Of a stretch of 64,000 nt of DNA, positions 4,132-53,948 are shown piece by piece. Numbering within the stretch: the first letter of the stretch is position 1; every line of letters begins with the position of its first letter. The notes below the pieces were generated by a model. It saw only the letters and a program-made list of their open reading frames with translations. It did no database searches and was not told the DNA's origin. This DNA comes from Subdoligranulum sp. CAG:314 (GTDB lineage Bacteria > Bacillota > Clostridia > Christensenellales > CAG-314), in contig FR900999.1 in assembly GCA_000437915.1 (NCBI GenBank), forward strand, positions 230,479 to 294,478, written 5' to 3'. Position numbers and translations under genes: made by a program.

Positions 4132-4975
4132 GGTTGTCAAAAGCGTGGGAGGAGTGTTTTACGTTTTCTGCGACGGCAGGAGAATGCGGTTGTTTTCCCG
4201 CAAAAAAATCAGGCTGCGCGACGAGGTGATTGTCGGCGACAACGTACTGTTCGACGAAAAGGAGAGAACAATCGAAAAGGTTTTGCCGCGGACAAACCGT
4301 CTTGTGCGCCCGCCTGTGGCAAACGTGGACTGTGCGTTGATTTTCGTAGCGCCGAGTCCCGAACCGGACCTTTTTCTTGCCGACAAAATTCTTCTCAATT
4401 GTTTCAGACAGGACGTCAGTCCGTTGTTCGTCGTCAACAAAAAGGATATTTCCGACGACGCTTTTTGCGACAGAATAAAGTCCAATTATTCGTCTGCGGC
4501 GACGGTGTTTTGCGTGAGCGCTTTGACGGGTGAGGGCGTAGAGGCCTTGAAACGGGCTTTGGCGGGCAAAACGGTGTGTCTGACAGGACAGTCGGCAGTG
4601 GGGAAAACGACTCTCCTCAATCTCCTTACGGGTGAAAATATGCCTACGGGCGACCTGTCCGAAAAAATTGCGCGCGGAAAAAACACAACGCGGCACAGCG
4701 AGATTTTCGGCGCGGGACAGGATACGTTCTTAATCGACACTCCCGGATTTTCTCTGCTTGACACGCAGGAAATAAGAGCGTTTGAGTTGGGGCTGTTTTA
4801 TCCCGACTTTGCCGAGCAGGCGCCGCTTTGCCGTTTCAATATGTGTACGCACACGGCCGAGCCGGACTGTGCGGTAAAAAGCGCCGTCGCAAACGGACGG
4901 ATAAACGGGGAACGGTACGAGAGATACGCCGCGCTTTTTGAACAGCTGAAAAAAGCGGAAGAAGAACGCTTTTAA
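4118..4975 (+). CDS. rsgA: Ribosome small-subunit-dependent GTPase A
   Basis: Circularly permuted GTPase with VVNKKD before GQSAVGKTTLLN. C-terminal zinc knuckle CRFNMCTHTAEPDCAV. Confidence 0.9.
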   Translation: MKTGKVVKSVGGVFYVFCDGRRMRLFSRKKIRLRDEVIVGDNVLFDEKERTIEKVLPRTNRLVRPPVANVDCALIFVAPSPEPDLFLADKILLNCFRQDVSPLFVVNKKDISDDAFCDRIKSNYSSAATVFCVSALTGEGVEALKRALAGKTVCLTGQSAVGKTTLLNLLTGENMPTGDLSEKIARGKNTTRHSEIFGAGQDTFLIDTPGFSLLDTQEIRAFELGLFYPDFAEQAPLCRFNMCTHTAEPDCAVKSAVANGRINGERYERYAALFEQLKKAEEERF

Positions 4976-4990
4976 TTCACGGAGAATTTT

Positions 4991-5635
4991 ATGAAAACAG
5001 TTATTTCGCCTTCTATTCTTTCCGCAGATTTTGCGGACATGGGAAACGCCGTCAGACGACTTGAACAATGCGGAGCCGATTGGGTGCATTGCGACGTTAT
5101 GGACGGAGTATTTGTGCCTAACATAACCTTCGGGCAGAAAATGGTTTCGGACATATCGGGACTGACAGACCTTGTGACTGACGTGCACCTCATGATAACC
5201 GAGCCTATAAGGTACGTAGAGGAATTTGTCAGGTGCGGCGCGGATATAGTTACGTTTCATGTCGAAGCCGCGCAAAGCGTTGCGCAAACAATAGCGGCGA
5301 TAAAAAAGGCCGGCGCAAAGGCAGGGCTTGCGTTGAAGCCCGCAACTCCCGTCGACGCCGTCGCGCCGTTTATCGACGGTTTGGATATGATATTGGTTAT
5401 GAGTGTGGAACCCGGCTTCGGCGGGCAGAGCTTTATGCCCTGCGCATTGGACAAAATACGCCTTGCAAGGAAATTGGCGGGGACACGCAACATAAGAATA
5501 CAGGTTGACGGCGGTATATCGGAAAAAAACGCGGCTTCCGCAGTGCAGGCGGGGGCGGACTGTCTTGTTGCGGGCAGCGCTGTGTTCAAGTCGCACGATA
5601 TGGCGCAAACAATAAAAAAATTGCGCGGCGTGTAA
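4991..5635 (+). CDS. rpe: Ribulose-phosphate 3-epimerase
   Basis: Motifs PSILSADF, HCDVMDG.FVPNITFG and MSVEPGFGGQ.F. Confidence 0.95.
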   Translation: MKTVISPSILSADFADMGNAVRRLEQCGADWVHCDVMDGVFVPNITFGQKMVSDISGLTDLVTDVHLMITEPIRYVEEFVRCGADIVTFHVEAAQSVAQTIAAIKKAGAKAGLALKPATPVDAVAPFIDGLDMILVMSVEPGFGGQSFMPCALDKIRLARKLAGTRNIRIQVDGGISEKNAASAVQAGADCLVAGSAVFKSHDMAQTIKKLRGV

Positions 5636-5690
5636 CAAAAAAAGCTCAAAGGACATATAATGTAATAATTCCAAGAAAAGGGGGATGTCT

Positions 5691-5771
5691 ATGAGAATAT
5701 GTTGTTTCAGATTGCCTAAATTTCTTTGTCCGTTGTTCAGATTGCTGTTCGGAAAAAAAGTCGTAAGATAA
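5691..5771 (+). CDS. Candidate 26-aa small protein MRICCFRLPKFLCPLFRLLFGKKVVR (hypothetical)
   Basis: The ATG sits 6 nt after a GGGGG run (5680-5684). A TATAAT-like hexamer lies at about 5656-5661. It occupies an otherwise empty 227-bp rpe/clpB spacer. There is no homology support. Confidence 0.25.
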   Translation: MRICCFRLPKFLCPLFRLLFGKKVVR

Positions 5772-5821
5772 TATTTCCGACATCTGCATACTATTATTTC
5801 AGATATAATATATCAAAAAAA

Positions 5822-5852
5822 AAGAAAAAACGGCTTAAAAAGCCGTTTTTTG
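5822..5852. terminator. Bidirectional intrinsic terminator between rpe (plus the small ORF) and clpB
   Basis: Hairpin CGGCT-TAAAA-AGCCG flanked by an A-run on one side and a T-run on the other. Confidence 0.7.
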
Positions 5853-5862
5853 TTGGTATTTT

Positions 5863-8463
5863 TTATTTTTCGACTCTTACCGAGAGTTCGCCGTTTTCCG
5901 CGTCCGTTATAAGCGTGCTGTTGGGTTTCAGCTCTCCGCTCAGCATTACGCGCGCGAGCAGCGTTTCCACCTTGCTTTGAATATATCTTTTGAGCGGTCT
6001 TGCGCCGTAAACGGGGTCGTAGCCGTGTTCGATAATGAAATCCTTGGCGCGGTCGGTAACAGACAGTTTCAGCTGCTTTTCCGCAAGACGCTTGGACAGG
6101 GAGGAAATCAGTATGTCAATAATTCCCGTTATGTTTTCCTTAGTCAAAGGCTTGTAGAAGATGATTTCGTCAAGTCTGTTCAAAAATTCGGGGCGGAAGC
6201 TTGTTTTTAAAAGTCTTTCCACTTCAAAACGGGCGTCCTCCTTTATTTCTCCCGTCTTTTCGTCTATGCCTTCGAGTATATAAGAGGAGCCGAGATTGGA
6301 GGTCAAAATCAGTATTGTGTTTTTGAAATCCACCGTGCGTCCCTGAGAATCCGTTATTCTGCCGTCGTCGAGAACTTGAAGCAAAATATTGAAAACGTCC
6401 GGATGGGCCTTTTCTATTTCGTCGAACAGCACGACGGAGTAGGGCTTGCGCCTTACCGCTTCGGTCAATTGACCGCCTTCTTCATAGCCCACATATCCGG
6501 GAGGCGCGCCTACAAGACGGGAGACGGAAAACTTCTCCATATATTCGGACATATCTATTCTTATCAGATTGTGTTCGTCGTCGAAAAGACACTCTGCAAG
6601 CGCCTTTGCAAGCTCCGTCTTGCCGACTCCCGTCGGACCGAGAAACATAAAGGAGCCTATCGGTCGGTTGGGGTCCGCAATGCCTGCGCGTGAACGCATG
6701 ATGGCCTCGCTGACCTTGGTTACTGCCTCGTCCTGTCCTATAACGCGCTTGTGGAGAACGTCGTCGAGGTGGAGGATTTTTTCTCTTTCTCCCTCCATGA
6801 GTTTTGAAAGAGGGATACCCGTCCAGCGGGAAACCACCTTGGCTATTTCTTCTTCCGTTACCGTATCGCGCAAAAGCGTGGTATGCTTGCTTTCGCTGTT
6901 TTGCTGTGCCTGCGCGAGCTTTGCGTTAAGCTCCGGCAGTTTGCTGTAACGCAGCTTGGCGGCAAGCTCGTAATCGGCCTTGCGTTGAGCCGCCTCTATT
7001 TCGGCGTTGGTTTTTTCTATTTCCGCTTTGATGTCGGAAACCTCGTTTATGCTCTTCTTTTCGTTTTCCCACTGCGCTTTCATGGCGCGGAATTTTTCTC
7101 TCAGGTCGGAAAGCTCTTTCTGAATGTCTTCAAGTCTGTTTCGCGACAGTTCGTCCGTCTCCTTTTTGAGTGCGGTTTCTTCTATTTCAAGCTGCATTAT
7201 ACGTCTGGAAATTTCATCCATTTCCTGCGGCATGGAATCGATTTCGGTTCTTATCATCGCGCACGCCTCGTCCACCAGGTCGATTGCCTTGTCGGGGAGA
7301 AAGCGGTCGGTTATATAACGGTTTGAAAGGGTGGCTGCCGCAATCAGCGCCTGGTCGTGTATGGACACGCCGTGGAAAATTTCGTAGCGCTCCTTCAAGC
7401 CGCGCAGTATGGAAACGGTGTCCTCGACATTCGGTTCGTCAACCGTGACGGGCTGAAAGCGGCGTTCAAGCGCGGCGTCCTTTTCGATGTATTTGCGATA
7501 TTCGTCAAGAGTGGTAGCGCCTATGCAGTGCAGCTCTCCGCGCGCGAGCAGGGGTTTGAGAAGATTTCCCGCGTCCATTGCACCGTCGCTCTTGCCTGCG
7601 CCGACGATAGTGTGAAGCTCGTCTATAAAAAGAATGATTTTGCCTTGGCTTTTTTTGATTTCGTTGAGGACGGCTTTCAGGCGTTCTTCAAACTCGCCTC
7701 TGAATTTGGCTCCCGCAATAAGCGAGCCCATATCCAACGCGAAAATTGTTTTGTCTTTCAGCCCTTCGGGAACGTCTCCGCGTACTATTCTCAGCGCAAG
7801 ACCTTCGGCAATCGCCGTTTTGCCCACGCCCGGCTCTCCTATGAGTACGGGGTTGTTTTTTGTTTTGCGGGAAAGGATTCTTATGACGTTGCGGATTTCT
7901 CCGTCGCGGCCGATAACGGGGTCGAGCTTGTTGGAGCGCGCACGCTCAACGAGGTCGAAGCCGTATTTGTTGAGCGCATCATAGGTGGTTTCGGGATTGT
8001 CGCTGGTTATTCTGTCTGTTTTCACCTTTTTCAATTCCTTCAAAAATCCGTCTTTGGTTATGCCGTGCGCACGGAAAATATCTTTAAGCGCGCCCTCGGC
8101 ATAGTCGAAAATACACAGCATTATATGCTCGACGGACACATAGTCGTCCTTCATGCCTGCCGCGAGCTTTTCTGCGGCAGTCAGAATTTTGTCCGTAAGG
8201 GGACTGATATAAACCTTGTCAGGCTCTCTGCCGCTGCCCGACACGGCGGGAAGCTTTCTTATCAAAGTGTCGGTTTCCGCAAGCAAAGCGTCGGGATTTT
8301 TGCCCATTTTGCGGAAAAGATTGTTTACGAGTCCGTCCTCGCCGTCAAGCAGTGCGTAAAAAAGATGTTCGGGAAGAATTTGTATGTTTTGATTTTCTAT
8401 TGCGATATTTTGCGCAGTCTGGATTGCTTCAAGCGCTTTTTGCGTAAGTTTTTGAGCGTTCAT
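5863..8463 (-). CDS. clpB: ATP-dependent chaperone/disaggregase ClpB
   Basis: 866 aa with a Clp_N domain, two AAA+ modules (GEPGVGKTA and GPTGVGKTE) and the long coiled-coil M-domain typical of ClpB. RBS GGAGG. Confidence 0.95.
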
Positions 8464-8480
8464 AGTGTACCTCCTTTAAT

Positions 8481-9134
8481 TCAGATTATCAATGCGCCGC
8501 TGTTGAGATATGCAAGATAGTCGTTTTCCATAGCCGTCAAATCGGAATAAGCTCCCGACAAGTGCTTTTTAAGCATGGCGTCGAAAACTTTGATGTAGGA
8601 AGAAATGGCGTTTGCACAGTCGTCGGCGTCGTAACGCGCGTTGACGGGCACGGACAGACTTCTGGTAAACCGCGTTTCGTCAAGCGTATAATTCAATGCG
8701 TTTTCCGGAAACAGCTTTAAAACGTAGGTATTTTCCAACCTCGCCCACAGTCTGAAAAATTCCGTCAGTCCAACGATAAGGTCGGGCGATTGAGTGCGGA
8801 AGTTTACTTTGAGCTGACCTATATTGCGTTCGGGAGTGCGGAACAGCTCCACCTCATAACGTATTGTGGGGCGGTATCTGTATACAAGGGAGCTTTTTAA
8901 GGACAGGGTATTGTCGTTCATCGCGTGCGCGGCAATCAGCTCCGTTCTGTCGAAAAAACTTTCTATGCTTCTGAAAACGTCCGCAATGTGCTTTTCAGGC
9001 GTCACCAAAGGGAGATAATCCGCAAGTATCTCGTTGATGAGCCTGGAACGATTTGTGTTTTGCTCCAAAGCAAGTCGGTCTATTGCTTCGACAACCTGCT
9101 CCGACAACATGAGGCTGTACATTGATTTTTTCAT
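8481..9134 (-). CDS. Ribbon-helix-helix (CopG/Arc-like) domain protein with an uncharacterised roughly 170-aa C-terminal domain
   Basis: Start chosen at MKKSMYS, preceded by GGAGG. The N-terminus YSLMLSEQVVEAIDRLALEQNTNRSRLINEILADYL fits the RHH strand-helix-helix pattern. The gene ends 17 nt before the clpB start codon. Confidence 0.65.
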   Translation of the reverse strand: MKKSMYSLMLSEQVVEAIDRLALEQNTNRSRLINEILADYLPLVTPEKHIADVFRSIESFFDRTELIAAHAMNDNTLSLKSSLVYRYRPTIRYEVELFRTPERNIGQLKVNFRTQSPDLIVGLTEFFRLWARLENTYVLKLFPENALNYTLDETRFTRSLSVPVNARYDADDCANAISSYIKVFDAMLKKHLSGAYSDLTAMENDYLAYLNSGALII

Positions 9135-9154
9135 TTTTACCTCCGATTGCAAGT

Positions 9155-9182
9155 ATTATAGCACACGGCAAAAAATTTGCAA
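9155..9182 (-). promoter_or_regulatory. Putative sigma-A promoter of the RHH-clpB operon
   Basis: On the minus strand: TTGCAA, 16-nt spacer, TATAAT. CTTGCAA occurs twice, once over the -35 and once just downstream of the -10. Confidence 0.5.
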
Positions 9183-9300
9183 GCATTTTTATATAAAATT
9201 ATTAACAAAATTTTGTTTTTTAATACAAGTGCGATAAGAAAAATCGACTTGACAATTCGGAATTTTTTATTTAAAATTAATCGAAATCGAGAGGTTAAAT

Positions 9301-9708
9301 ATGAATATAGAAAAAGGATTAAAAAACACCGAGCAATTCGAAGTGACGGAAAATCTCACCGCGGCAAGTCTCGGAAGCGGTCTGTTGCCCGTGCTTTCAA
9401 CTCCTGCCATGATTGCGTTTATGGAGGGCGTCTGTCAGCATTCGGTGCAGCCTTATCTGAGCGAGGGATACGGTACGGTAGGCGCGGAGCTTAACGTAAG
9501 ACATGTATCCGCCACTCCTGTGGGGATGCGTGTAAAAGCCGAGTGCGAGTTGGTTTCCGTCGACGGCAATATGTATACGTTTGAAGTAAGGGCTTTCGAC
9601 GAAACGGGGCTTATTGGCGAGGGGACGCACAAGCGGTGCGTAATCAACGACGAGAAATTCATGAAAAAAACCTTGTCCAAGCTTGAAAACAGAAAGCAAT
9701 CGTTTTAG
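9301..9708 (+). CDS. Hotdog-fold thioesterase (fluoroacetyl-CoA thioesterase-like family)
   Basis: 135 aa. The pattern ...VLSTPAMIAFMEG...GTVGAELNVRHVSATPVG..V.A...V..DG....F.V.A.D..G.IGEGTH.R matches this thioesterase family. Confidence 0.8.
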   Translation: MNIEKGLKNTEQFEVTENLTAASLGSGLLPVLSTPAMIAFMEGVCQHSVQPYLSEGYGTVGAELNVRHVSATPVGMRVKAECELVSVDGNMYTFEVRAFDETGLIGEGTHKRCVINDEKFMKKTLSKLENRKQSF

Positions 9709-9742
9709 AGAAAAAAAGAAAAATCCGGCAAAAGCCGGATTT

Positions 9743-10204
9743 TTAATTTTCTTCCGTTTCGGTATAAATTACGTTTCCGTTAAGTTTTTTTATGCAGTCG
9801 ATAAAGGGTGTAAAGTCCTGCTGCGCAATGTTGATATGCGTGACGACAGGCTGCTCCGAGTTCTCTTGCGTAAGGAGGTAAAGTCTGTTGTATTTTTTGT
9901 CAAGCACGATTTGCCTCGCGTTTTCGATAAGTATTTTTCCCTTGAGAATATCGAAAAAGAATAAATTAAGACGGATATTTTTTGAGTTTACGACATAGCT
10001 TACGTTTAAGGCAGCAATCATAAACGCCACCAGCAGAACGGAAAGAGCAAGCGTGACGTATTCAAGCCAGAGAGCGGAGGGCTTTAAACCGAACAGGTTG
10101 AAAAGCCGCGAAAGCGTGTAAAAAATCATAACCGTCCAGACAGCAAGCACTATCCATGCGGCTGTCTTGAATTTTTTTGGCAGAATGTATCTGAATCGTT
10201 TCAT
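9743..10204 (-). CDS. Membrane protein with two N-terminal TM helices and a bacterial PH-like (membrane-flanked) C-terminal domain
   Basis: Two hydrophobic helices (AAWIVLAVWTVMIFY and LALSVLLVAFMIAALNV) followed by a soluble roughly 85-aa domain. The family assignment is tentative. Confidence 0.5.
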   Translation of the reverse strand: MKRFRYILPKKFKTAAWIVLAVWTVMIFYTLSRLFNLFGLKPSALWLEYVTLALSVLLVAFMIAALNVSYVVNSKNIRLNLFFFDILKGKILIENARQIVLDKKYNRLYLLTQENSEQPVVTHINIAQQDFTPFIDCIKKLNGNVIYTETEEN

Positions 10205-10305
10205 ATTTTTTCTCCGCGCTTATTCTATCACAGATTTGCGCTAGATGCAATTTAATTTGTATTCCCGAGCGAATTGTGGTATAATAATCTCTAACGGTGT
10301 TTATT

Positions 10306-11286
10306 ATGGACAAAAACCTCGAATTGAGACGGCTTTACACTCAGAGCTTTGACGATTCGGAAGCCTTTGTGGATTATTTTTTCCGAAAGCTGACCTCTCC
10401 CGACAAGGTTGTCGCTTTAATACGCGACGGAAAAACGGTTTCTGCGCTGCACCTGTTGGACAGAAGAATTTTTTTGAGAGGGGAGCTGTTTGAAATGCCG
10501 TTTGTTGTAGCCGCCGCAACTGTCAGGGAACTCAGGGGCATGCGCCTGTTGGAAACAGTTATGCGCACCGCATTCGAGCGGCTTTATAGCGAGGGCAAAA
10601 CATTCGTCGCGCTTTATCCTTTCAGTCATGCGTATTATCGCAAATACGGTTTCGTGACTTATACGAAAATATCGAGGAAAGAAATAAAATACAGAAAGGA
10701 CGGCGAAACGGAGATTATGCCCTGCACGCCTTTGAATATGCTGAAAATTTACAATCGCTTTTGCGCGGGCAGGCAAGGTTACATCGTGAGACAGGCGGAC
10801 ACCTATGAGGAATTGCTTGAAAGGTGGTCGGTAGACAATCTTACCGCTTACACGGTGAAAAAAAACCGACTTGAAGCATACGTTGTTTTTTCGCCTTTGA
10901 CGGGAGAAATAGAGGAGGCGTGCGGAGACACGGAGGTTCTTGACGGAGTAGAGGAGCTAAACGGAAAAACGTGCCCCGATTTCGACGGCGCTGCGGAAGA
11001 ATATGCCATGACAAGGCTGATAGACGTAAAGGGCGCGTTGGAAAACATACGCTACGACAGGGACGGAGAGTTTTCCTTTCTGCTGCGCGACGATTTTTTC
11101 CCGTTGAACGACGGGGCGTACAAGCTTACGGTATGCGGCGGAAACGGAACGGTGGAGAAAGTACCCGCGCACGACGGACTGCCGCGTCTTGGCATAGAGA
11201 AGCTTACTTTGTGGATTTTCGGGCAAGGAGGCGCGGACTGCCCGCTTCTGAGTCCCAAAAAGACTTTTTGCATTGACAAATACTGA
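10306..11286 (+). CDS. GNAT family N-acetyltransferase, Eis-like, with a C-terminal SCP2-like domain
   Basis: The GNAT core V.VAAATVRELRGMRLLETVM, the YGF motif region and the roughly 325-aa three-domain length are typical of Eis-type acetyltransferases. Confidence 0.75.
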   Translation: MDKNLELRRLYTQSFDDSEAFVDYFFRKLTSPDKVVALIRDGKTVSALHLLDRRIFLRGELFEMPFVVAAATVRELRGMRLLETVMRTAFERLYSEGKTFVALYPFSHAYYRKYGFVTYTKISRKEIKYRKDGETEIMPCTPLNMLKIYNRFCAGRQGYIVRQADTYEELLERWSVDNLTAYTVKKNRLEAYVVFSPLTGEIEEACGDTEVLDGVEELNGKTCPDFDGAAEEYAMTRLIDVKGALENIRYDRDGEFSFLLRDDFFPLNDGAYKLTVCGGNGTVEKVPAHDGLPRLGIEKLTLWIFGQGGADCPLLSPKKTFCIDKY

Positions 11287-11305
11287 AAAAACAAAAAGAG
11301 GTAAT

Positions 11306-11899
11306 ATGAGAATTATTGCAGGAAAGTGCAAGGGGCGGAAGCTGGAAACGCCATGCACGGATATGCGTCCCACTCTGGACAGGACGAAAGAAACTTTGTT
11401 CAATATACTTCAAACGGAGGTTCCCGACGCCGCCGTTCTGGATTTGTTTGCGGGCAGCGGTTCTTTGGGGTTGGAAGCGTACAGCCGCGGCGCGAAAAGA
11501 ATTGTCTTTGCGGATATAGACAGGCGCGCTACCGAAACGATAAAACGAAACTGCAACAAGGTCGGATGCGACGCGCCCGTTTTGACGGCTCCTTTCGAGA
11601 CGGCGGCGGCGCAGCTCGGAGAAAAATTCGATTTGGTGTTTATCGACCCGCCTTACAAGCAAAATCTCTATTACCGCGCTCTCAAAGCGCTGGTCGATTC
11701 GGACAGGCTCAACGACGGGGCAATCGCGGTGTGCGAGCACAGTCCGGAGGACAAGCTGCCCGATAAAGTAGGCGGCTTGTCAAAATACAGAGAAAAGAAA
11801 ATGGGTAAATGTCAGTTCAGCTTTTATCGCTTTGAAAGCGGACTATGCGATGAAGGCTTAAAGAAAGAGATTTCAGACAGGGAGGAAAAGGAAGAATGA
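11306..11899 (+). CDS. rsmD: 16S rRNA (guanine966-N2)-methyltransferase RsmD
   Basis: MRIIAGKCKGRKLETP, DLFAGSGSLGLEA and FIDPPY. RBS AAGAGG upstream of the ATG at 11306. Confidence 0.9.
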   Translation: MRIIAGKCKGRKLETPCTDMRPTLDRTKETLFNILQTEVPDAAVLDLFAGSGSLGLEAYSRGAKRIVFADIDRRATETIKRNCNKVGCDAPVLTAPFETAAAQLGEKFDLVFIDPPYKQNLYYRALKALVDSDRLNDGAIAVCEHSPEDKLPDKVGGLSKYREKKMGKCQFSFYRFESGLCDEGLKKEISDREEKEE

Positions 11900-12366
11900 A
11901 AGCGGTGTTTATGGGTTCTTTTCAACCGGTTACAAACGGACACGTTGACATAATTACGCGCTCGTCCCGACTTTGCGAGGAGGTTTTCGCCGTAGTCGGA
12001 TACAATCCCGAAAAGCCGCTGCTTGTGCCCGTCAGCGCGCGCGAGCGTTGGCTCAAACAGGCGGTAAGTCATTTGAACAACGTCAGAGTGGAAAGCTTTG
12101 CGGGAGCTTTGGCGGATTTTTGCGTGCAGGTTGGCGCCGACTGCATCATCAAATCGGTGAGAAACGCTTCGGATTTCTGTTTTGAAGCGGATATGGCGTA
12201 TTTCAACAAACGTCTGTGCGGAATCGAAACTTTGCTTCTGCCTGCGGACGAAAAATATATTCATTTATCGTCCACGTTTGTAAGAGAGCTGATAAAATGC
12301 AAAAAGGACGTGTCTTTGTACGTGCCGCAGGGATTGGCGAAAGAAATTTCAGAGGCGTTTAAATAA
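11896..12366 (+). CDS. coaD: Phosphopantetheine adenylyltransferase
   Basis: GSFQPVTNGHVDII (T/HxGH motif), ISSTFVRE, and the conserved rsmD-coaD pairing. Confidence 0.95.
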   Translation: MKAVFMGSFQPVTNGHVDIITRSSRLCEEVFAVVGYNPEKPLLVPVSARERWLKQAVSHLNNVRVESFAGALADFCVQVGADCIIKSVRNASDFCFEADMAYFNKRLCGIETLLLPADEKYIHLSSTFVRELIKCKKDVSLYVPQGLAKEISEAFK

Positions 12367-13350
12367 ATGTTGACGGTTTTAAGCTCCGCTCCTTCAAGGA
12401 AAGCGCTTTTGAGCGCCGTTCCGTTGTCCGCCGCCGCAAAAAAAACAAAGCTTGACAACGACAAAACAATAAAAGACATAGTAGGCGGAAAAGACAATAG
12501 AAAGCTTGTGGTATGCGGCCCCTGCTCCGCGGACAATCCGGAGGCTGCCGTCGAATACTGCGTCAGACTCAAAAGCGTTGCCGACAAAGTCAAAGACAAG
12601 CTGTTTTTGACGCCGAGGCTGTACGTGGCAAAAGCAAGAACGCACGGAGAAGATTATCAGGGCTTGCTTATGGACGCGAAGGAGGGCGGCTCCCTTTCCG
12701 ACAACGCTTTTTTATGCCGAAAAATGTTTGTCGAGGTTTTGGAACGCACGGGGCTTCCCGTTGCGGACGAGCTGCTTTTTGCAGAACAGATTGAGTTTTT
12801 CGGAGATATTGTTTCTTACTGTTTTATAGGCGCGAGGCAGTGCGACAGCCCTTTTTTCAGAGGGCTTGCTTCCGGACTCGACGTTGCCGTAGGCGTCAAA
12901 AACAACCTTGCGGGAAATCTCTCTCTTCTTGCGTTTTCATTGCAGGCAATCGCCATGAAACGCCGCTTTTTCGACGGGGGACGGGAGGTGGTTTCAGACG
13001 GCGCGCTGTGTCACGGTGTTTTGAGGGGCTTTTCCGACAGCTCGGGCGTTATGCGTCCAAACAACGACGGCGCAAGCGTCGGTGAATTTGCTCGGATTCT
13101 TAAAGAAAACAAGTTGAATAAGTTTATCATGATTGATTGCAGTCACGCAAACAGCGGTAAAAATTATCTGCGTCAGACTGAAAACGCGATAAACGCCATT
13201 AAAAATCCTTTGTGCGGAGGTATTATGCTGGAAAGTTATCTCAAAGAGGGACGCTGCGAGGGCGGCGTTTTCGGTTGTTCGAGAACAGACGCCTGTCTCG
13301 GCTGGTCTCAGACGGAGGAGCTTTTGCTTGAATTGCACGGTTTATTGTAA
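12367..13350 (+). CDS. 3-deoxy-7-phosphoheptulonate (DAHP) synthase, class I alpha type
   Basis: VVCGPCSADNPEAAVEY, K.RT...YQGL, IGAR...SPFFRGLASGL...VGVKN and IDCSHANS align with AroF/G/H signature blocks. Confidence 0.8.
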   Translation: MLTVLSSAPSRKALLSAVPLSAAAKKTKLDNDKTIKDIVGGKDNRKLVVCGPCSADNPEAAVEYCVRLKSVADKVKDKLFLTPRLYVAKARTHGEDYQGLLMDAKEGGSLSDNAFLCRKMFVEVLERTGLPVADELLFAEQIEFFGDIVSYCFIGARQCDSPFFRGLASGLDVAVGVKNNLAGNLSLLAFSLQAIAMKRRFFDGGREVVSDGALCHGVLRGFSDSSGVMRPNNDGASVGEFARILKENKLNKFIMIDCSHANSGKNYLRQTENAINAIKNPLCGGIMLESYLKEGRCEGGVFGCSRTDACLGWSQTEELLLELHGLL

Positions 13351-13517
13351 ATTTCACGGCGCGGTTAAAAAATCTGCGCCGTTTTTTTATCTCCCGATGC
13401 GGAAAAATTATTTATATTTATTGCATTCGCAAGCGTAAAGTATTATAATTTATCGGTCAAAAAAAATTGCCGCTTTTTGCCGAAAGGACAGGGGGCGGAA
13501 ATGCTGAGGGATTTTGA

Positions 13518-14924
13518 ATGAACACCGATTTGACTGTCGGAAAGCCTTGGAAAGTGCTTTTAAAATACATATTGCCTTTGTTCGGCAGCGCCGTTTTTCA
13601 GCAGCTGTACACTTTGGCGGATACGATTATCGCGGGGCGGTTTGCAGGACAGACGGCGTTGACCGCTATCGGAGCCTCCAACGCCATAGTAAACATACTT
13701 ATGGCTGTTTCTTTGGGGGCAAACGCAGGCTGCGCCGTGCTTGTTTCAAGATATTTCGGGGCAAGGCAAAACGGCAAAACAAAAACGACCATTTACACGG
13801 CGCTTATTTCTTTTGCGATACTGAGCGTTTTGCTTGCGACGGCGGGAGTTGCCACCTGCCGCCTCATCCTGACCGCTCTGAAAACTCCGCAGGAAGCGCT
13901 TAGCGAAAGCATAGATTATCTCAATATCTATTACTTCGGACTGCCGTTTCTCATGCTTTACAATCTCGGCACGGGTATTTTTTCCGCGCTGGGTGACAGC
14001 AGAACGCCGTTTATATTCCTTGTGTTTTCATCCGTCGCAAACATTGTGCTGGATTATTTTATGGTGCAGGATTCGGGTGTCAGAGGCGTAGCCTGGGCAA
14101 CCTTTATCGCGCAGGGAGTCGCTTGCGTTCTGACTTTGATTTTTGTCTTTTTGCGCGCGTCCAAATTCAAATCGGATGAAAGCAAAAAGGTCTATTCTTT
14201 CGGCTTGCTCAAACTTTTGCTGCTGCTTTCTCTTCCGATAGTTTTGCAAAACAGCTTTGTGTCCGTAGGCAATCTGATTTTGCAGGTGCGTATAAACGAG
14301 CTTGCGCAAGTGCAAGGCATCGGCATAACGTCGGGTTTTACCGCCGGCAGCAAGCTTGTCGTTTTCTGCACCACGTGCATATGCACCTGCGCAAGCGGTC
14401 TTACGAATTTCGTGTCGCAGAATTACGGCGCGCACAAGTTCAAACGGATAAAGCGGGGCTTCGGCTCGTCGCTTGTCATTTCTTCCGTTATTGCTTCGCT
14501 GTTTGTCGCGGCGTGTCTTATTTTTACCGAGCCGCTTATAAATTTGTTTATGGCACAGGGAGAGGACGTTGAGCTTGCCATGTCGTCGGCTGCCCAATAT
14601 ATTCGCATAGTGGCGCCTTTTTATCTTGTGGTCAATGTAAAAGTTAACGCCGACGCGACGGTGCGCGGGTGCAACGGAAACGTGGGCTTTATGGTAAGCA
14701 CCTTTTCCGACCTTATTTTCCGTGTGGGGCTGGTTTATGTTCTTACGCCGTTTATGGGCTTTGCCGGCGTGGGTTGGGCATGGGCAATCGGCTGGGTGCT
14801 CGGCACGGTTGTCGCCGTTTTGTTTTATGCTTTCACAAAGTGTCTGCGCAAGAGTTATATCGAAAAATACGATGCGGAGCTAAACCCGCCCGAAGACGCC
14901 GAAAGTACCTGCGCCGCCGTGTGA
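13518..14924 (+). CDS. MATE family efflux transporter
   Basis: 468 aa with about 12 TM helices. N-terminus ...KVLLKYILPLFGSAVFQQLYTLADTIIAGR is typical of the MatE family. Confidence 0.9.
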   Translation: MNTDLTVGKPWKVLLKYILPLFGSAVFQQLYTLADTIIAGRFAGQTALTAIGASNAIVNILMAVSLGANAGCAVLVSRYFGARQNGKTKTTIYTALISFAILSVLLATAGVATCRLILTALKTPQEALSESIDYLNIYYFGLPFLMLYNLGTGIFSALGDSRTPFIFLVFSSVANIVLDYFMVQDSGVRGVAWATFIAQGVACVLTLIFVFLRASKFKSDESKKVYSFGLLKLLLLLSLPIVLQNSFVSVGNLILQVRINELAQVQGIGITSGFTAGSKLVVFCTTCICTCASGLTNFVSQNYGAHKFKRIKRGFGSSLVISSVIASLFVAACLIFTEPLINLFMAQGEDVELAMSSAAQYIRIVAPFYLVVNVKVNADATVRGCNGNVGFMVSTFSDLIFRVGLVYVLTPFMGFAGVGWAWAIGWVLGTVVAVLFYAFTKCLRKSYIEKYDAELNPPEDAESTCAAV

Positions 14925-15631: not shown

Positions 15632-15717
15632 GCCGAAGTGGTGGAATGGCAGACGCGACGGACTCAAAATCCGTTGTTGGCAACAACGTGCGGGTTCAAG
15701 TCCCGCCTTCGGCACCA
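15632..15717 (+). tRNA. tRNA-Leu (anticodon CAA), class II with a long variable arm; CCA is encoded
   Basis: Acceptor GCCGAAG/CTTCGGC, anticodon stem ACGGA/TCCGT with loop CTCAAAA, variable arm GTTGTTGGCAACAAC, T-arm GCGGG-TTCAAGT-CCCGC. Confidence 0.9.
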
Positions 15718-15760
15718 GCAGCCAAGCGCGCCCCGGCTCGTTTGGTTTTTTTCTTGCCTT
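15697..15760 (+). repeat. Proximal copy of the Leu-locus direct repeat: tRNA-Leu from T-loop C56 to CCA plus its terminator flank
   Basis: Aligns with 15881-15944. The first 17 nt are identical, then about 6 substitutions and 3 single-nt indels. It contains the hairpin CCAAGCG..CGTTTGG plus a T7 run. Confidence 0.85.
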
Positions 15761-15835
15761 TAAAGCAAGCAAAAACCAAAGCAACGCCAAAGGCATTGCT
15801 TGTCTGCCGTACAGACAGTTTGGAAAAGAAATAAT

Positions 15836-15889
15836 GTGACGCGAAAAGGGGTTTTCGCTGTTCCGTCGCTGCGCTCCTTGCAAGTCCCG
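15836..15889 (+). repeat. Conserved junction motif, plus-strand copy
   Basis: Sequence GTGACGC-[GCGAAAA GGGG TTTTCGC hairpin]-TCGCTG N5 TCGCTG-CGCTCCTTG, fused to CAAGTCCCG. It shares both arms with the minus-strand copy at 16708-16768. Confidence 0.85.
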
Positions 15890-15944
15890 CCTTCGGCGCC
15901 GGCAAGCCAAGCGCGCCCCAATTCGTTGGTTTTTTCTTGTCTTT
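15881..15944 (+). repeat. Distal, diverged partial copy of the tRNA-Leu 3' end plus terminator
   Basis: See 15697-15760. The acceptor/CCA region has mutated (GGCGCCGGCA versus GGCACCAGCA), so this is not a functional tRNA. Confidence 0.85.
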
Positions 15945-15984
15945 GATATTTTACAACGTATAATTTTGTTATATTATCGATGAA

Positions 15985-16623
15985 ATGGTACAAAAAAAAG
16001 CTTTTTTAAATATTTATGTGTCGTCTTATCCCTTTGAATGTGGGAGTCAAAATATATCATTCGCACCGAGAGCGGAGGAAATCGAGGCCTGCACAAACGA
16101 AAATGTCCGCAGGCAAAAGCTTTATGTATGGAAGCTTTTGGAGCTTGCCGTCGGTGATTTGTCGGGCATGGATTTAAATAGCTTGAACCTAAGGAAAGAT
16201 GAAAACGGAAAATGGCAGTCGGATAAGATTTATATTTCGTTGTCGCACAGCGGCAATGTTGTCGCGGCGGCGGTGTCTGACAGCTCGGTAGGCTTGGATA
16301 TTGAATTTTTCAATGAAAAAAAATTCGGAAAGTCGCTTGCAAACAGAATTGCAACAGAGAGCGAAAAATCTTTTTTTGCAAAAGAGCGTGCTTTTTCGGA
16401 GCGAGTGTGCGCCTTGTGGACGAGGAAAGAAAGCGAATTTAAGCGTAAAGGAGAAAAAATTTTCAGACCGTTTTTTACAGGCGCGCTTTCGTCGCCGTGC
16501 AGGACATTTTTGCTCAAATGTAATCATGAAAGCTATGTTTTGTCAGTTTCGGGAGAAAGCGTTTCAAAATCGTCATTTGTCACGCCTTTTGATAATGTCG
16601 TTGTCTTCGAAGAAATAAAATAA
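15985..16623 (+). CDS. 4'-phosphopantetheinyl transferase, Sfp-type
   Basis: ISLSHSGNVVAAAVS..VGLDIE and WTRKESEFK match the PPTase superfamily signature blocks (G.D.E and W.xKES..K). Confidence 0.85.
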   Translation: MVQKKAFLNIYVSSYPFECGSQNISFAPRAEEIEACTNENVRRQKLYVWKLLELAVGDLSGMDLNSLNLRKDENGKWQSDKIYISLSHSGNVVAAAVSDSSVGLDIEFFNEKKFGKSLANRIATESEKSFFAKERAFSERVCALWTRKESEFKRKGEKIFRPFFTGALSSPCRTFLLKCNHESYVLSVSGESVSKSSFVTPFDNVVVFEEIK

Positions 16624-16638
16624 TGCAGGAATTTAACG

Positions 16639-16716
16639 AAGCAAAGAGAGTGCGTAAAAACGCACTCTCTTTGCAAAACAGTCGAGTTTCGACGTTGGTC
16701 GAGGCGACGGGACTTG
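16639..16716 (-). repeat. Distal copy of a perfect 78-nt direct repeat: tRNA-Pro positions 56-76 plus 57 nt of 3' flank including a hairpin
   Basis: Identical base for base to 16932-17009. Contains the hairpin AAAGAGAGTGCG-TAAAAA-CGCACTCTCTTT. Confidence 0.95.
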
Positions 16717-16768
16717 CAAGGAGCGGCAGCGACGGAGCAGCGAGGGAGGAAAGCTCCCGAAGCGTCAC
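16708..16768 (-). repeat. Conserved junction motif, minus-strand copy
   Basis: Its reverse complement reads GTGACGC-TTC[GGGAG CTTTC CTCCC]-TCGCTG N5 TCGCTG-CCGCTCCTTG-CAAGTCCCG. Confidence 0.85.
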
Positions 16769-16931
16769 AAAATTCAACATCCCGTAAAAAGAAGTCTGCC
16801 AAACAGCCCCCAAAGCGACGTTTGGTTTTTTTGTGAGTCCTACGCAACAAAAAAGCCAAACAAGCAAAAAGGGCTTGTAAAAAAGAGGAACCCCGAAAGC
16901 GAGCTTTCGGGGAGGAGGAGAAACCGACAAA

Positions 16932-17009
16932 AAGCAAAGAGAGTGCGTAAAAACGCACTCTCTTTGCAAAACAGTCGAGTTTCGACGTTGGTCGAGGCGA
17001 CGGGACTTG
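16932..17009 (-). repeat. Proximal copy of the 78-nt repeat; overlaps the 3' 21 nt of tRNA-Pro and its downstream hairpin
   Basis: Perfect match to 16639-16716. Confidence 0.95.
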
Positions 17010-17065
17010 AACCCACGACCTCTTGCTCCCTAAGCAAGCGCGCTACCAAACTGCGCCACGCCTCG
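16989..17065 (-). tRNA. tRNA-Pro-like gene with anticodon loop TTAGGGA (anticodon AGG); CCA is encoded
   Basis: Manual cloverleaf: acceptor CGAGGCG/CGCCTCG (C1:G72, A73), D-stem GCGC/GCGC with GG in the loop, anticodon stem CTTGC/GCAAG, T-arm GTGGG-TTCAAGT-CCCGT (two G.U pairs). Total 77 nt. Confidence 0.8.
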
Positions 17066-19839: not shown

Positions 19840-21075
19840 TTATTCGCTTTCGACGCTCGCGCCGACAATTTCGTTTTCCGTTTTTTCGGCAGGAATCGCG
19901 TCTCTTTTCTTTCTTGACATATACAAAGAAACGCAAAGTAAAGAGATTGTCACCGCGCACAGAGCGGGATTTCTGAAATAGCTGAACGAAGTTGTACCGA
20001 ATTTATATTCATTCAAAATTGCAATGACAAATACGATTGCAACGTGAAGGACGATAAATACTATATCGGATATATAAGAGTTGAAAATGCTTTTTTTGTT
20101 TTCCGAACTGTGCGCGAGAGTTACGGCTCCCAATACAAGCAAAATTACGGACAAAATCAGCTGCCAATACATATTGCCGATGATTTCCGGTTTGAAGAAC
20201 AGCCGGTTAAAAAAGTCGAGAACGGCAAACGAAGCCCTTACGAGACAGAAAATCATCGCCGCAAAACGTAATTTTGAAGCGGTAAAAGATGAAGTCGGTT
20301 TCTGCCTTACTCGGGAAGAAAGCGAAAGCGAAACGACGCATAACACGGCGGAAGCGGCATAAACCAGATATATCAATCCATTTTCAAAAATCGGAACTTC
20401 CGCGTCGGTCGGGTTGACGCCGATAAACGCGAAAAAATAATAAGCAAGCAAGATTAAATCGAGAGCGCGTCTTTGCTCAAAGCCGTTTTTTGTCCGTTCA
20501 GGCGGTTTGATTAACATTATCGAAACGGTCAGAAACAGCGTTGCGAAAGCTATAAGATATAACATATACAAAACCGGAATCGAATTGTTTTCATTGAACA
20601 TCCAAATCACGCAAAATATGATTACCGACGAGAAATGGACTGTGTTGAATATGCCGTTTCCCAGTTGAATATTGCGTTTCAGAGCGACTGCGCGCGCGGG
20701 TGACTGTCCGTATTTGTAAATCGTCAAAAAGGCGAATGTCGCGGAAACGCCGAAAAGCGCAAATTGAAAAACGCCGAGAGTGTTTGAAACGAAATTCACG
20801 TAACCGAAAAAAGGTTGGGAAAGAAATACGGAAAAAGAGCCCGCAAGGACAGCAAAAAGCAAAACCGCGCTTGCCGCGCTGCCCTTTTCTTCGCTAAAAA
20901 CGAGAAATAGCGAAAGCAAAATTATGCAACCGTATACCACGTTGAAAGAGATGATATAAATTTTTTCCAACCCGGTACCGCGCAGCCCTGCGGCGTTGAT
21001 AAAACCAAAAATCGCAAACAGTATTCCGGCTATACACCCGCAAATCTGATAAATTTTTTCTTTAAAATGCAGCAT
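19840..21075 (-). CDS. Polytopic membrane protein of unknown function (paralog B)
   Basis: Start set at MLHFKEK, with AGGAGGG 6 nt upstream. About 12 hydrophobic segments and an acidic C-terminal tail. Architecture is similar to the upstream gene. Confidence 0.65.
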   Translation of the reverse strand: MLHFKEKIYQICGCIAGILFAIFGFINAAGLRGTGLEKIYIISFNVVYGCIILLSLFLVFSEEKGSAASAVLLFAVLAGSFSVFLSQPFFGYVNFVSNTLGVFQFALFGVSATFAFLTIYKYGQSPARAVALKRNIQLGNGIFNTVHFSSVIIFCVIWMFNENNSIPVLYMLYLIAFATLFLTVSIMLIKPPERTKNGFEQRRALDLILLAYYFFAFIGVNPTDAEVPIFENGLIYLVYAASAVLCVVSLSLSSRVRQKPTSSFTASKLRFAAMIFCLVRASFAVLDFFNRLFFKPEIIGNMYWQLILSVILLVLGAVTLAHSSENKKSIFNSYISDIVFIVLHVAIVFVIAILNEYKFGTTSFSYFRNPALCAVTISLLCVSLYMSRKKRDAIPAEKTENEIVGASVESE

Positions 21076-21106
21076 TGCATCCCTCCTGTTAAGTACGTAA
21101 ACTTGT

Positions 21107-22339
21107 TTATTCCGCGCTTTCCGCATTTTCTTCCGTCACAACCGTTTTTTCCGTTTGTTCGGGCGACGTCGAATTTTTTTTCAAAACTGTCGACGCGGCG
21201 CAGCAGATGGCAAGCGCAAAGCCGAATGCGCAGGATGCCCTGAGATAACTTTGCTCGGGCGTTGTAATCAGCCCGAATGTCAGGCACAAGAGGCAGGCGA
21301 CGAAAATAAGCGTTTTCATGACGACGGGCGGGAAGATTTTTTTGCCAAAGTGCAGCGGAAGGGCAAGAATTACGACCGCCGTGCCCGAGACCAGATAAAT
21401 GTAGTCGGCGTAATCGGGAATGCGCCTCAACGTATCGTCCTTTTGACAAAAAACAAAATTTGCAATCACGGTCACTGCGAGAAGAATGGACAGGGGAAGA
21501 AGGGCTTTGTCCGCGCAAAAAGACAAATGCCCGCGTTTGTCCTCAAAGGGACCGAATTCGAATCTGTCGAAAATGCAAATCAGACTGAGCGCGATTATTG
21601 CCATACTCAAAAGAATATTCAGAAAATAAACGGGCTGCTCGTACAGCAAATCACCTTCCAGCAGATTCTTTATATCGTAAATGTAGTAAAGTACAAATAA
21701 AATATTGATTAAAGTTTTTTCATTGTATCTGCCGCTCATTTTCCAATGCTGTTCTTTGATGAGAAAGCATGAGAGAACTATTACCGCCGCCGACAGTAAA
21801 ACGGGCAACAGCGAATCGAAATCGGCAAACCGCGAGTATAAAATAATCAATGCGCTTGAAAGGGCGGTTAAAATGCCTCTTACAAGGTTTGCTATGCCGT
21901 TGGCTTTGAGCAGAATCCGTTTTTTGTGAAAGACGTATTCGGCTTTTTGCGCGTTGAACTGAATAATTGCGGCGTTAAGCAAAATTATGAATACGCTTAG
22001 AAAAATGCGAACCGTGTCAAGCGCCAGAGAATACTGTACTTCGAGTTCTTCCCAGAAAACAAAACAGCACAAAAAAATATTGACGACGATGAAAACGATT
22101 TCCGCAGACAAAGATTCGGTTTTCGACGATGCGATATAATATATGGAAAAGATAACGGAAGTCAAAGCAAGCGCAACGCATACGACGGATACCGTGCTTT
22201 GTTCCGAATGAAAATCTTTCGGATTCAAGTGAATGAGTATTTCCGCAAGGATAAACAGCGCGGCGTTTGCAATGCAGCAAAACGAATTCAAATATTTAAG
22301 CAAAACTGTTTTGTTTGCCGACTCCTTAATTTTTTTCAT
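21107..22339 (-). CDS. Polytopic membrane protein of unknown function (paralog A)
   Basis: 410 aa with about 12 hydrophobic segments and an acidic C-terminal tail EQTEKTVVTEENAESAE. No recognisable catalytic motif. Confidence 0.65.
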   Translation of the reverse strand: MKKIKESANKTVLLKYLNSFCCIANAALFILAEILIHLNPKDFHSEQSTVSVVCVALALTSVIFSIYYIASSKTESLSAEIVFIVVNIFLCCFVFWEELEVQYSLALDTVRIFLSVFIILLNAAIIQFNAQKAEYVFHKKRILLKANGIANLVRGILTALSSALIILYSRFADFDSLLPVLLSAAVIVLSCFLIKEQHWKMSGRYNEKTLINILFVLYYIYDIKNLLEGDLLYEQPVYFLNILLSMAIIALSLICIFDRFEFGPFEDKRGHLSFCADKALLPLSILLAVTVIANFVFCQKDDTLRRIPDYADYIYLVSGTAVVILALPLHFGKKIFPPVVMKTLIFVACLLCLTFGLITTPEQSYLRASCAFGFALAICCAASTVLKKNSTSPEQTEKTVVTEENAESAE

Positions 22340-40023: not shown

Positions 40024-40182
40024 GACGATTATATTACACTTTTAACCTCGAAAAGGCAATTTTTATATCGGAGCAACAAATAAAATTTGAGTGAAACGCG
40101 CGGCTATGTTTGACAAAACGGGTTGACTTATATATTATTAAAGAAGAACGGCAAACGCTTTGCTTTGCCGGAGGTGAGAGAA

Positions 40183-40653: not shown

Positions 40654-40662
40654 TTTTATTCG

Positions 40663-53905: not shown

Positions 53906-53948
53906 CTTTTACTGTTTGTAGAAGTAATAAGCATAAAGGAGAAATATC

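Follow-up and report, generated by a model that had tools for sequence, protein, structure and literature searches.

Within a 64,000-nucleotide stretch of the genome of Subdoligranulum sp. CAG:314 (contig FR900999.1, positions 230,479 to 294,478; this whole stretch is referred to as the window), the genes for tRNA-Leu(CAA) and tRNA-Pro(AGG) are each followed by a second, displaced copy of their own 3' tail that begins at nucleotide C56 of the T-loop and is joined to one common motif. The same joint recurs next to tRNA genes of other identities and in other Clostridia and, judging from the sequences compared here, the compact units that carry it appear to form a previously undescribed family of tRNA-targeting mini-elements. 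The interpretation that we tentatively favour, at slightly less than an even chance, is that of a miniature non-autonomous element that was inserted between T55 and C56, is moved in trans by a site-specific recombinase and is reshuffled by homologous recombination.

Displaced tRNA tails at two loci of the window

The tRNA genes of the window were called with ARAGORN and Rfam and the repeats were located with a repeat finder, which confirmed the direct tail repeats that a first-pass annotation, made from the sequence alone, had placed at these two genes. The Pro repeat (16639-16716 and 16932-17009) covers 78 nt at 100% identity with an offset of 293, and the Leu repeat (15697-15760 and 15881-15944) is split into three collinear blocks, which are 92%, 84% and 93% identical, and contains a single 1-nt indel; its offset is 183-185. 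At both loci the distal copy starts at CAAGTCCCG, that is, at C56 of the T-loop TTCAAGT, and is directly preceded by the motif TCGCTGYTCCGTCGCTGC(C)GCTCCTTG, so that the common start and the common preceding motif claimed in the first pass are both borne out by the window sequence. The sequence TCGCTG(T/C)TCCGTCGCTGC(-/C)GCTCCTTG forms inverted arms in the window (15855-15889 and 16708-16743). The 18-mer core of the motif occurs at only two sites in the 64 kb, compared to 0.15 expected, and two or more sites were reached in none of 100 shuffles. The junction, CTTG/CAAG, is an 8-bp palindrome at both Leu and Pro. The features of the two loci are the following:

15632-15717, plus strand: intact tRNA-Leu(CAA) gene (ARAGORN, Rfam)
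15697-15717, plus strand: proximal tail copy, the last 21 nt of tRNA-Leu (C56-A76)
15718-15760, plus strand: terminator flank 3' of tRNA-Leu, proximal copy of the duplicated flank (repeat finder)
15761-15827, plus strand: variable 5' body of the Leu element, made up of hairpins
15786-15794, plus strand: GCCAAAGGC in the Leu body, which in inverted orientation matches the acceptor 3' strand at 8 of 9 positions, not significant by itself
15828-15842, plus strand: conserved box of the Leu element, GAAATAATGTGACGC
15838-15862, plus strand: hairpin P2 of the Leu element (GAC-GCGAAAA / GGGG loop / TTTTCGC-T-GTT)
15855-15880, plus strand: right-end motif, Leu copy, TCGCTGTTCCGTCGCTGCGCTCCTTG, with two TCGCTGY repeats 11 nt apart, GCTCCT and 2 nt
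15881-15901, plus strand: displaced distal tRNA-Leu tail from C56, with 2 mismatches and the CCA lost
15902-15944, plus strand: distal copy of the Leu terminator flank
15985-16623, plus strand: 4'-phosphopantetheinyl transferase (PPTase) gene, between the two elements
16695-16639, minus strand: distal 57-nt Pro terminator flank
16716-16696, minus strand: distal tRNA-Pro tail from C56
16717-16743, minus strand: right-end motif, Pro copy, TCGCTGCTCCGTCGCTGCCGCTCCTTG on the minus strand
16775-16762, minus strand: conserved box of the Pro element
16988-16932, minus strand: 57-nt terminator flank, proximal copy, of the long Pro element
16717-17009, minus strand: 293-bp long Pro element, missing from empty alleles
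16989-17009, minus strand: proximal tRNA-Pro tail (C56-A76)
16989-17065, minus strand: intact tRNA-Pro(AGG) gene (ARAGORN, Rfam)

Read in the orientation of its tRNA, the long Pro element continues after the flank with another hairpin region (~67 nt) and a truncated terminator, after which come body, box, a variable hairpin and the motif. No open reading frame (ORF) fits inside the elements, in agreement with the first-pass view that the inserts are too small to encode an enzyme. The PPTase gene is a bystander; it served as the anchor with which orthologous loci were located. The anticodon AGG, with A34, is unusual for a bacterial tRNA-Pro.

Recurrence at other tRNA genes and in other organisms

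A search for the motif beside other tRNA genes, as proposed in the first pass, was carried out as one exact-pattern scan of species-representative genomes (GTDB) and one scan of metagenomes, and found it at Val, Arg and Thr tRNAs and at a second Pro locus. The scan of representative genomes, in which the window species gave no match, returned a single locus in Ca. Heteroclostridium caecigallinarum. Here, three units of ~230 nt stand in tandem after tRNA-Arg(CCT), each with the motif joined to the Arg tail CGATTCTCGCCGGGAGTACCA from C56, and the most distal of the three tails has lost its CCA. Two tandem units are also present after tRNA-Val. The metagenome scan returned 42 loci, chiefly from the human gut, which together with the window gives 55 exact copies of the motif.

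When up to four edits were allowed, 74 motif copies were found in the 0.5 Mb of all collected related loci (labelled L001 and so on). In 69 of them the motif is followed by exactly two variable nucleotides (TG, CG or TA) and then by a tRNA tail from C56; three more are cut by contig ends, one is a chance match in GC-rich DNA (L008) and one contains a homopolymer error (L057). The tails are those of Leu(CAA), Pro(AGG or CGG), Val(GAC), Arg(CCT, in two sequence types) and Thr(CGT), and the tail always matches the tRNA immediately upstream, an intact tRNA being found wherever the contig extends far enough. Full tRNAs were called upstream of every unit by ARAGORN and Rfam, and the decayed tails are the distal ones. 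In other words, five tRNA identities in at least three or four lineages of Clostridia share the same C56 joint, which upholds the proposal that the shared junction is not the product of local slippage but a footprint anchored at one T-loop nucleotide. A motif confined to this locus and free of polymorphism, the outcome that the first-pass annotation had named as evidence against its own reading, is not what was found; the motif recurs, and alleles without the Pro element exist. No description of such a unit was found in Rfam or in the full-text literature searched.

Two short, low-coverage contigs (L024, L025) carry tRNA-Val and a Val-type body with the motif joined to a Pro tail and the PPTase flank; these hybrids could be real recombinants at the junction of motif and tail or assembly chimeras. 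The contigs L055 and L058, from the sister species described below and a close relative, end inside an element or tRNA. Repeats of this kind break assemblies at tRNA loci, and elements may be missing from representative genomes.

Architecture of the element family

The elements measure ~125-170 bp in a short form and ~290-310 bp in a long form. In the short form no gap separates A76 of the tRNA from the unit, as seen for Pro (L009, L021, L037), Val (L004), Arg (L001, L029) and Thr (L039), and the parts of an element are arranged in the order class-specific terminator hairpin, variable stretch, box, hairpin, motif and displaced tail. The box reads GAAATAAYGTGACGC or GAATTYTGTGACGC (pattern GAAWT..GTGACGC), the hairpin between box and motif has a constant base (GC..GC) and a variable upper stem, and the motif is made up of two TCGCTGY direct repeats 11 nt apart followed by GCTCCT and 2 nt. 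Alignment of twelve distinct cores gives a mean column identity of 77% with 36 invariant columns, and the 24-nt motif of the window Leu element is identical to that of the Arg and Thr elements of other organisms. A coding function of the motif was considered and rejected, because length variants with 0, 1 or 2-3 extra nt occur within it (GCTGC-GCTCC, GCTGCCGCTCC, GCTGTCGCTCC, GCTTAGCGCTCC).

The variable hairpin keeps its pairing by means of compensatory changes. For Leu, the upper stems of window and sister species, GCGAAAA/TTTTCGC and GCGAAAG/CTTTCGC, differ by a single compensatory change from A-T to G-C; Arg and Thr copies show CGCC/GGCG versus ACAC/GTGT, and two Pro copies show GGGAG/CTCCC versus GGGT/ACCC. 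Compared to shuffled sequences, the stability of the hairpin reaches z-scores of -2.2 to -2.9 in the Thr and Arg2 classes and, more weakly, -1.3 to -1.7 in ArgH and Leu; the Pro and Val hairpins are no more stable than shuffles. A search of the locus against Rfam 15 returned the two tRNAs only, with nothing else in the elements at E<=1, and no promoter was predicted inside either window element.

Each unit closes at a terminator, and a terminator also precedes the unit. The duplicated segment, which ranges from 21 to ~177 nt across the family, has its end exactly at A76 in each of the five short-form classes. Among the longer duplications, several stop at the T-run of a terminator, and those in L038 and L012 stop inside the element, not at an RNA end. 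No sequence is shared by the left ends of the elements and the right-end motif; the hairpins at the left are unrelated terminators.

Some classes additionally carry the tail in inverted form. From GCCGAAATAAC onward, the Thr and Arg2 elements are near-identical; they differ in the ~15 nt before that point, which in each of them are the reverse complement of the tail of its own tRNA (inverted pairs GCTACTGGCCG vs CGGCCAGTAGC and GTACTCCCGTCGGG vs CCCGCCGGGAGTAC). A match to the own tail was reached in 1-8 of 2000 shuffles for Thr and in 0 of 2000 for Arg2 (p<=0.004); it is marginal in ArgH and not significant against shuffles in the Leu, Pro and Val copies. In Thr and Arg the segment is complementary to the last 14-17 nt of the own tRNA, in the manner of a primer-binding site. 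The inverted segment is thus regarded here as a real feature of part of the family, not a defining one, and a tRNA-minihelix fold or a primer-binding-site-like copy as a family-wide trait was rejected, the match being significant in Thr and Arg2 only.

Strain variation and conservation between species

The assembly collection lists an identical PPTase in 1275 blocks. Among ten contigs of 200-650 kb that carry it, the 293-bp long Pro element is present in six and absent in three, and one is rearranged, with the Pro element present next to a tRNA-Pro(CGG) 5' half and a different upstream neighbourhood. Exactly 293 bp are absent in L006, L033, L048, L049, L052 and L057. Other strains (L009, L037) have a 169-bp short Pro form in which only the 21-nt tail is duplicated. 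At the second locus, tRNA-Pro(CGG), a short form is followed by the tail, the same 57-nt flank, a 67-nt hairpin region and a 32-nt terminator, which recurs at the start of the short element.

The tRNA-Pro with anticodon AGG and its CGG paralogue or allele differ at two positions only. In L005, L009, L014 and L051, anticodon, upstream flank and downstream flank are found in mixed combinations, and therefore ectopic exchanges between the Pro loci do occur. Across strains, either tRNA-Pro 5' half is seen with either downstream context (also in L021). This implies recurrent recombination or inversion between the two tRNA-Pro loci, and the long Pro form of the window can be derived by unequal crossover at the 32-nt repeat and subsequent ectopic exchange between tRNA-Pro loci.

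The first-pass annotation had regarded the repeated segment downstream of tRNA-Pro as the gene's own terminator flank. This view has to be revised, as the 57-nt flank is homologous to the flank of the tRNA-Val unit, including a compensated terminator stem, and probably belongs to the element. The recommended search for empty sites did yield alleles without the Pro element; with the flank counted as part of the element, however, they are more likely deletions between the 78-nt repeats than virgin sites. The Leu element is present on every contig that reaches tRNA-Leu(CAA). In some strains it harbors a motif variant of the Pro/Val type, which argues for gene conversion between elements.

In a sister species whose PPTase is 53% identical to that of the window, gene order is conserved and the Leu and Pro elements are both found at the same places, with motif and hairpin variants of their own. 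Identity between the two species is 83% for box, hairpin and motif, 91% for the distal tail and 80% for the tRNA promoter, compared to 51-65% for other intergenic DNA. In each species, the two Leu flank copies are closer to each other than to their orthologues and thus evolve in concert. An older empty Leu site was sought in deeper relatives via homologues of the MATE transporter, where synteny was lost and tRNA-Leu(TAG) was found instead. In L059 (5465-5900), from a related species, tRNA-Leu(TAG) lies downstream of the orthologous MATE gene and is followed by ~3 tandem copies of an unrelated hairpin repeat of ~195 nt.

Search for an enzyme and neighboring mobile elements

Scanning of 40 window ORFs with Pfam gave matches for 30, all of them housekeeping (def, fmt, rsmB, clpB, copA, typA, fusA, lysS and others), and left 10 of 153-428 aa without a match at E<=1e-5. 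As stated in the first pass, no integrase, transposase or reverse transcriptase is found in the window, in the sense that none is among these 40 ORFs, the last ~6 kb lying outside the scan. ORFs without a Pfam match are located at 4037-5674, 8481-10204, 19840-22339, 32348-33133, 40138-41301 and 53895-54446, and at least one of them (19840-21126) has the appearance of a multi-pass membrane protein.

A tyrosine integrase is encoded at one of the collected loci. In L029, a 10-kb island (3725-13890) separates tRNA-Arg(CCT) from a partial copy of a tRNA beginning at the anticodon loop. The island carries genes for a 474-aa tyrosine integrase (3941-5365, minus strand), a LuxR-type regulator and two leucine-rich-repeat proteins of the BspA type; ~150 nt of the flank 3' of the tRNA are duplicated too, at ~90% identity, and a complete small element with its displaced tail lies beyond the partial tRNA copy. 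Since its repeat starts at the anticodon loop, the island uses another crossover site and is a separate element; for this reason, and with the complete small element outside it, it was rejected as the parent element. With the L029 integrase as query, tblastn found no homologue in the other collected loci or in the window. In L019, an ORF at ~400-1300 on the minus strand resembles by eye, in its zinc-ribbon and coiled-coil features, the C-terminal part of a large serine recombinase and stops at GGAGTACCA, with the small element next to it, which suggests a second type of mobile element that may use the extreme 3' end of tRNA-Arg. The Val element of L043 is bordered at its start by foreign, AT-rich DNA. 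The L019 element with its putative serine recombinase and the L043 insert were likewise rejected as parents, the small element being left complete outside them. That other mobile elements located between the tRNA and the small element leave the latter intact indicates that it is a separate entity.

Directly downstream of the tRNA-Pro(CGG) array there is a prophage lysis module (holin, collagen-repeat protein); the prophage at this locus had no relative in the phage collection. Between array and lysis module there is a direct repeat, GTACCCC-N4-GTACCCC, which is seen again close to the Pro element in the sister species and may represent binding sites of a recombinase or repressor. These features were noted at L003 (1-5660), L021 (11170-11300) and L055 (3300-3350). 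Two exact patterns of the motif gave zero matches in the 2.9 million contigs of IMG/VR, the INPHARED phages gave none, and the PLSDB plasmids gave a chance match only. BLAST against phages and plasmids returned only matches of 21-22 nt in coding regions, which were judged to be chance because of their E values of 0.4-0.5. These were a match in an unannotated fecal phage contig with an integrase-like ORF by eye (H1) and matches antisense to the reverse transcriptase gene of a Mycetohabitans group II intron (H2-H4), all set aside on this ground.

Proposed mechanism and alternative explanations

In the mechanism that we favour, the point of insertion would be the T-loop, between T55 and C56. The left part of the element would bring a replacement tRNA tail (C56 to CCA) and a terminator, so that the tRNA gene stays intact, and the conserved core would come to abut the displaced original tail. 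The conserved right end, with its TCGCTGY repeats one helical turn apart, would be the putative recombinase binding site, and the putative enzyme would most simply be of the tyrosine type and of the T-loop sublocation class, encoded elsewhere and acting in trans; Williams reportedly distinguished in 2002 sublocation classes within tRNA genes for tyrosine integrases, "T-loop" among them. After insertion, unequal crossover would build arrays and long forms, recombination between direct repeats would delete the element and leave empty alleles, and ectopic exchange between the tRNA-Pro(AGG) and tRNA-Pro(CGG) loci and between elements would shuffle their parts. An excised circle would read, across its junction, …GCTCCTTG / CAAGTCCCGTCGCCTCGACCA / CATTGCC….

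The invariant junction, the five tRNA identities, the tandem arrays with decayed distal tails and the strain polymorphism support this mechanism, and of the explanations put forward in the first pass, the miniature non-autonomous element at the att site of a T-loop recombinase is the best supported, although no enzyme was found. A number of points weigh against it. No recombinase is linked to any copy, and none is among the scanned window ORFs. Homologous recombination alone suffices to produce all variation within the species, and no insertion event was caught. Being found at the same places in the sister species, the elements are old residents, with a core that is constrained or repeatedly refreshed, and not active jumpers. 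For a tyrosine recombinase, 150-300 bp would make a very small circle, the GCTCCTTR to the left of the crossover is unlike the 5' strand of the T-stem expected of a core-type site, and one enzyme would need to accept five tRNAs with differing sequence to the right of the T-loop. The acquisition of a new matching tail is left unexplained by the model, and the inverted copy of the own tail in Thr and Arg is not what a plain integrase model would predict.

Among the alternatives, we consider it rather unlikely that the units are scars, that is, fused attL/attR remnants (P' arm and P arm) of T-loop phages or islands that have lost their interior and are not themselves mobile. Such an origin would fit the prophage lysis module right downstream of the tRNA-Pro(CGG) array, the homology of the tRNA-Pro and tRNA-Val flanks, as for arms of related elements, and the use of the same tRNAs as hot spots by other mobile elements; however, all six classes are compact and of the same architecture without gene fragments, no large element lies on the body side of any motif copy, save different elements at the boundary of tRNA and element, the motif is absent from the IMG/VR contigs and INPHARED phages, and the core is conserved in place between species. 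A role for the host is distinctly unlikely as well. The units would in that case be structured RNAs or cis elements that mimic an acceptor/T-arm minihelix with a large T-loop insertion, lie on a tRNA read-through transcript and spread by duplication and gene conversion. The absence of a predicted promoter, the terminator that precedes the unit, the frequency of strains lacking the Pro copy and the lack of any Rfam match speak against this, as do the occurrence at different tRNAs in different taxa and not at one orthologous gene, and the downstream genes, which are unrelated or convergent. The structural evidence is divided: hairpin changes are compensatory, with G-T wobbles on the tRNA-sense strand, the 5' segment pairs with the tail in the Thr and Arg copies (p<=0.004), the core is conserved between species above background and every unit ends in a terminator, but the Pro and Val hairpins do not exceed shuffles in stability and the tail-pairing segment lacks significance in the Leu, Pro and Val classes. 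One local duplication followed by gene conversion between the neighboring loci, finally, is hardly credible. Gene conversion is indicated by the Pro/Val-type motif in the Leu element of some strains and by the concerted evolution of the two Leu flank copies within each species, but the distribution refutes such an origin, because the same junction recurs at Val, Arg and Thr tRNAs, at the second Pro locus and in other genera.

The remaining alternatives have in common that the element would move by reading the tRNA itself and not a DNA sequence, with either reverse transcription templated or primed by the mature tRNA 3' end or a recombinase or nuclease that recognizes the folded acceptor/T-arm of the tRNA gene as single-stranded DNA (ssDNA) and cuts it at T55/C56. 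We regard movement of this kind as unlikely; if true, it would add to bacterial mobile DNA a new class, whose members change target by copying the tRNA in question. For reverse transcription with template switch, which by itself is improbable, the tail would be a cDNA of the tRNA 3' end joined to the 3' end of the core RNA, with entry by homology or by target-primed synthesis at a T-loop nick. It would account for one end being fixed and the other variable, for the five short-form duplications that all end at A76, the mature 3' end, for the several longer ones that end at terminator T-runs and thus at primary-transcript ends, and for the segment in Thr and Arg that complements the final 14-17 nt of the tRNA. 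The CCA is gene-encoded, however, so that the A76 boundary is equally expected from selection for an intact tRNA; the L038 and L012 duplications end inside the element, an RNA that starts with a terminator hairpin is awkward, and no reverse transcriptase was found in the 40 scanned window ORFs or noticed in the few ORFs of related loci examined. We know of no bacterial precedent for such an origin of tail copies. Recombination of folded ssDNA, similar to that of integron attC sites or CTX phage, in which the enzyme would recognize the acceptor/T-arm helix together with the element hairpin and cut in the T-loop, is decidedly improbable. The inverted copy of the own tail that flanks the core in Thr and Arg, the maintenance of a hairpin of variable sequence, the position of new units next to the attachment site, as in cassette arrays, and a target choice apparently made by structure and not by tRNA sequence would suit it. 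Against this stand the lack of significance of the inverted copy in Leu, Pro and Val and the absence of a linked IntI-like or HUH gene and of attC core sites, and the reading is inferential throughout.

Significance and comparison with known systems

tRNA genes are classic landing pads for islands and phages, and to our knowledge every well-described user of tRNA sites carries its own integrase. A gene-less unit of 150 bp would be the miniature parasitic counterpart of tRNA-targeting islands and would point to a T-loop-specific enzyme in abundant human-gut Clostridia, or, if the tRNA itself serves as the template, to a new mechanism of mobility. In practical terms, the units break metagenome assemblies at tRNA loci, as in L055 and L058, mediate strain-level rearrangements between paralogous tRNA loci and offer a strain marker in a very common gut species.

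Compared by their generally known features, the closest likeness is to islands and prophages that integrate into tRNA genes by a T-loop tyrosine integrase. In both cases the direct repeat spans the tRNA from its T-loop to its 3' end, the element brings a new tail that keeps the tRNA intact and leaves the displaced tail at the far end, elements accrete in tandem at one tRNA, solitary minor-codon tRNAs are targeted, and occupied and precisely empty alleles coexist in the population, with the reservation that the empty ones may here be secondary deletions. In contrast to islands, the units described here are 125-310 bp long without an integrase or any gene, have one conserved end across five tRNA identities, are unlike the T-stem to the left of the crossover and in some copies contain an inverted copy of the tail. 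With cis-mobilizable elements (CIMEs), integrase-less derivatives of integrative elements, they share the non-autonomous nature, the att-type flanking repeats and the presumed mobilization in trans; CIMEs, however, are kilobases long and deletion derivatives of a known parent, whereas the present units are ~150 bp and have no known parent. Non-coding integron cassettes with their attC sites are likewise small units arrayed by one attachment site, of variable sequence with a conserved hairpin and with the newest unit proximal, but here the attachment site is the T-loop of a tRNA and there are no GTTRRRY core sites, IntI or attI. The junction reads GGTT/C and the motif ends in CTCCTTR, with no R''/R' core sites. 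The primer-binding sites of retroviruses and long terminal repeat (LTR) elements and the tRNA insertions of the Mauriceville retroplasmid resemble the units in that the boundary is the mature tRNA 3' end and some copies are complementary to it; they differ in that here no reverse transcriptase was found in the scanned window ORFs, the CCA is gene-encoded and the copy reaches position 56, not 59.

Several further classes were considered and rejected. A miniature inverted-repeat transposable element (MITE) does not fit left ends that share nothing with the right-end motif, nor duplications of 21 to ~177 nt in place of short fixed ones. A palindrome-associated transposable element (PATE) of the IS200/IS605 type or a rolling-circle element of the IS91 type is at odds with left hairpins that are unrelated terminators, with the duplicated tail and with a flanking tetranucleotide that varies (CTTG, CTCG and ATCG on the bottom strand); the IS91 target (GTTC/CTTG) fits Leu, Pro and Thr but fails for Val and Arg. 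As to guides of CRISPR-associated transposons or TnpB omega-RNAs, there is no cas, tns or tnpB gene among the scanned window ORFs and no match to an Rfam scaffold, and the only likeness to a homing guide or omega-RNA lies in a conserved segment and the 21 nt after it, which are the same as those 3' of GGTT in the tRNA. Relative to all these systems, what is new is the size of 125-310 bp without a gene, the single end common to five tRNA identities across genera and, in some copies, the target-matched inverted segment.

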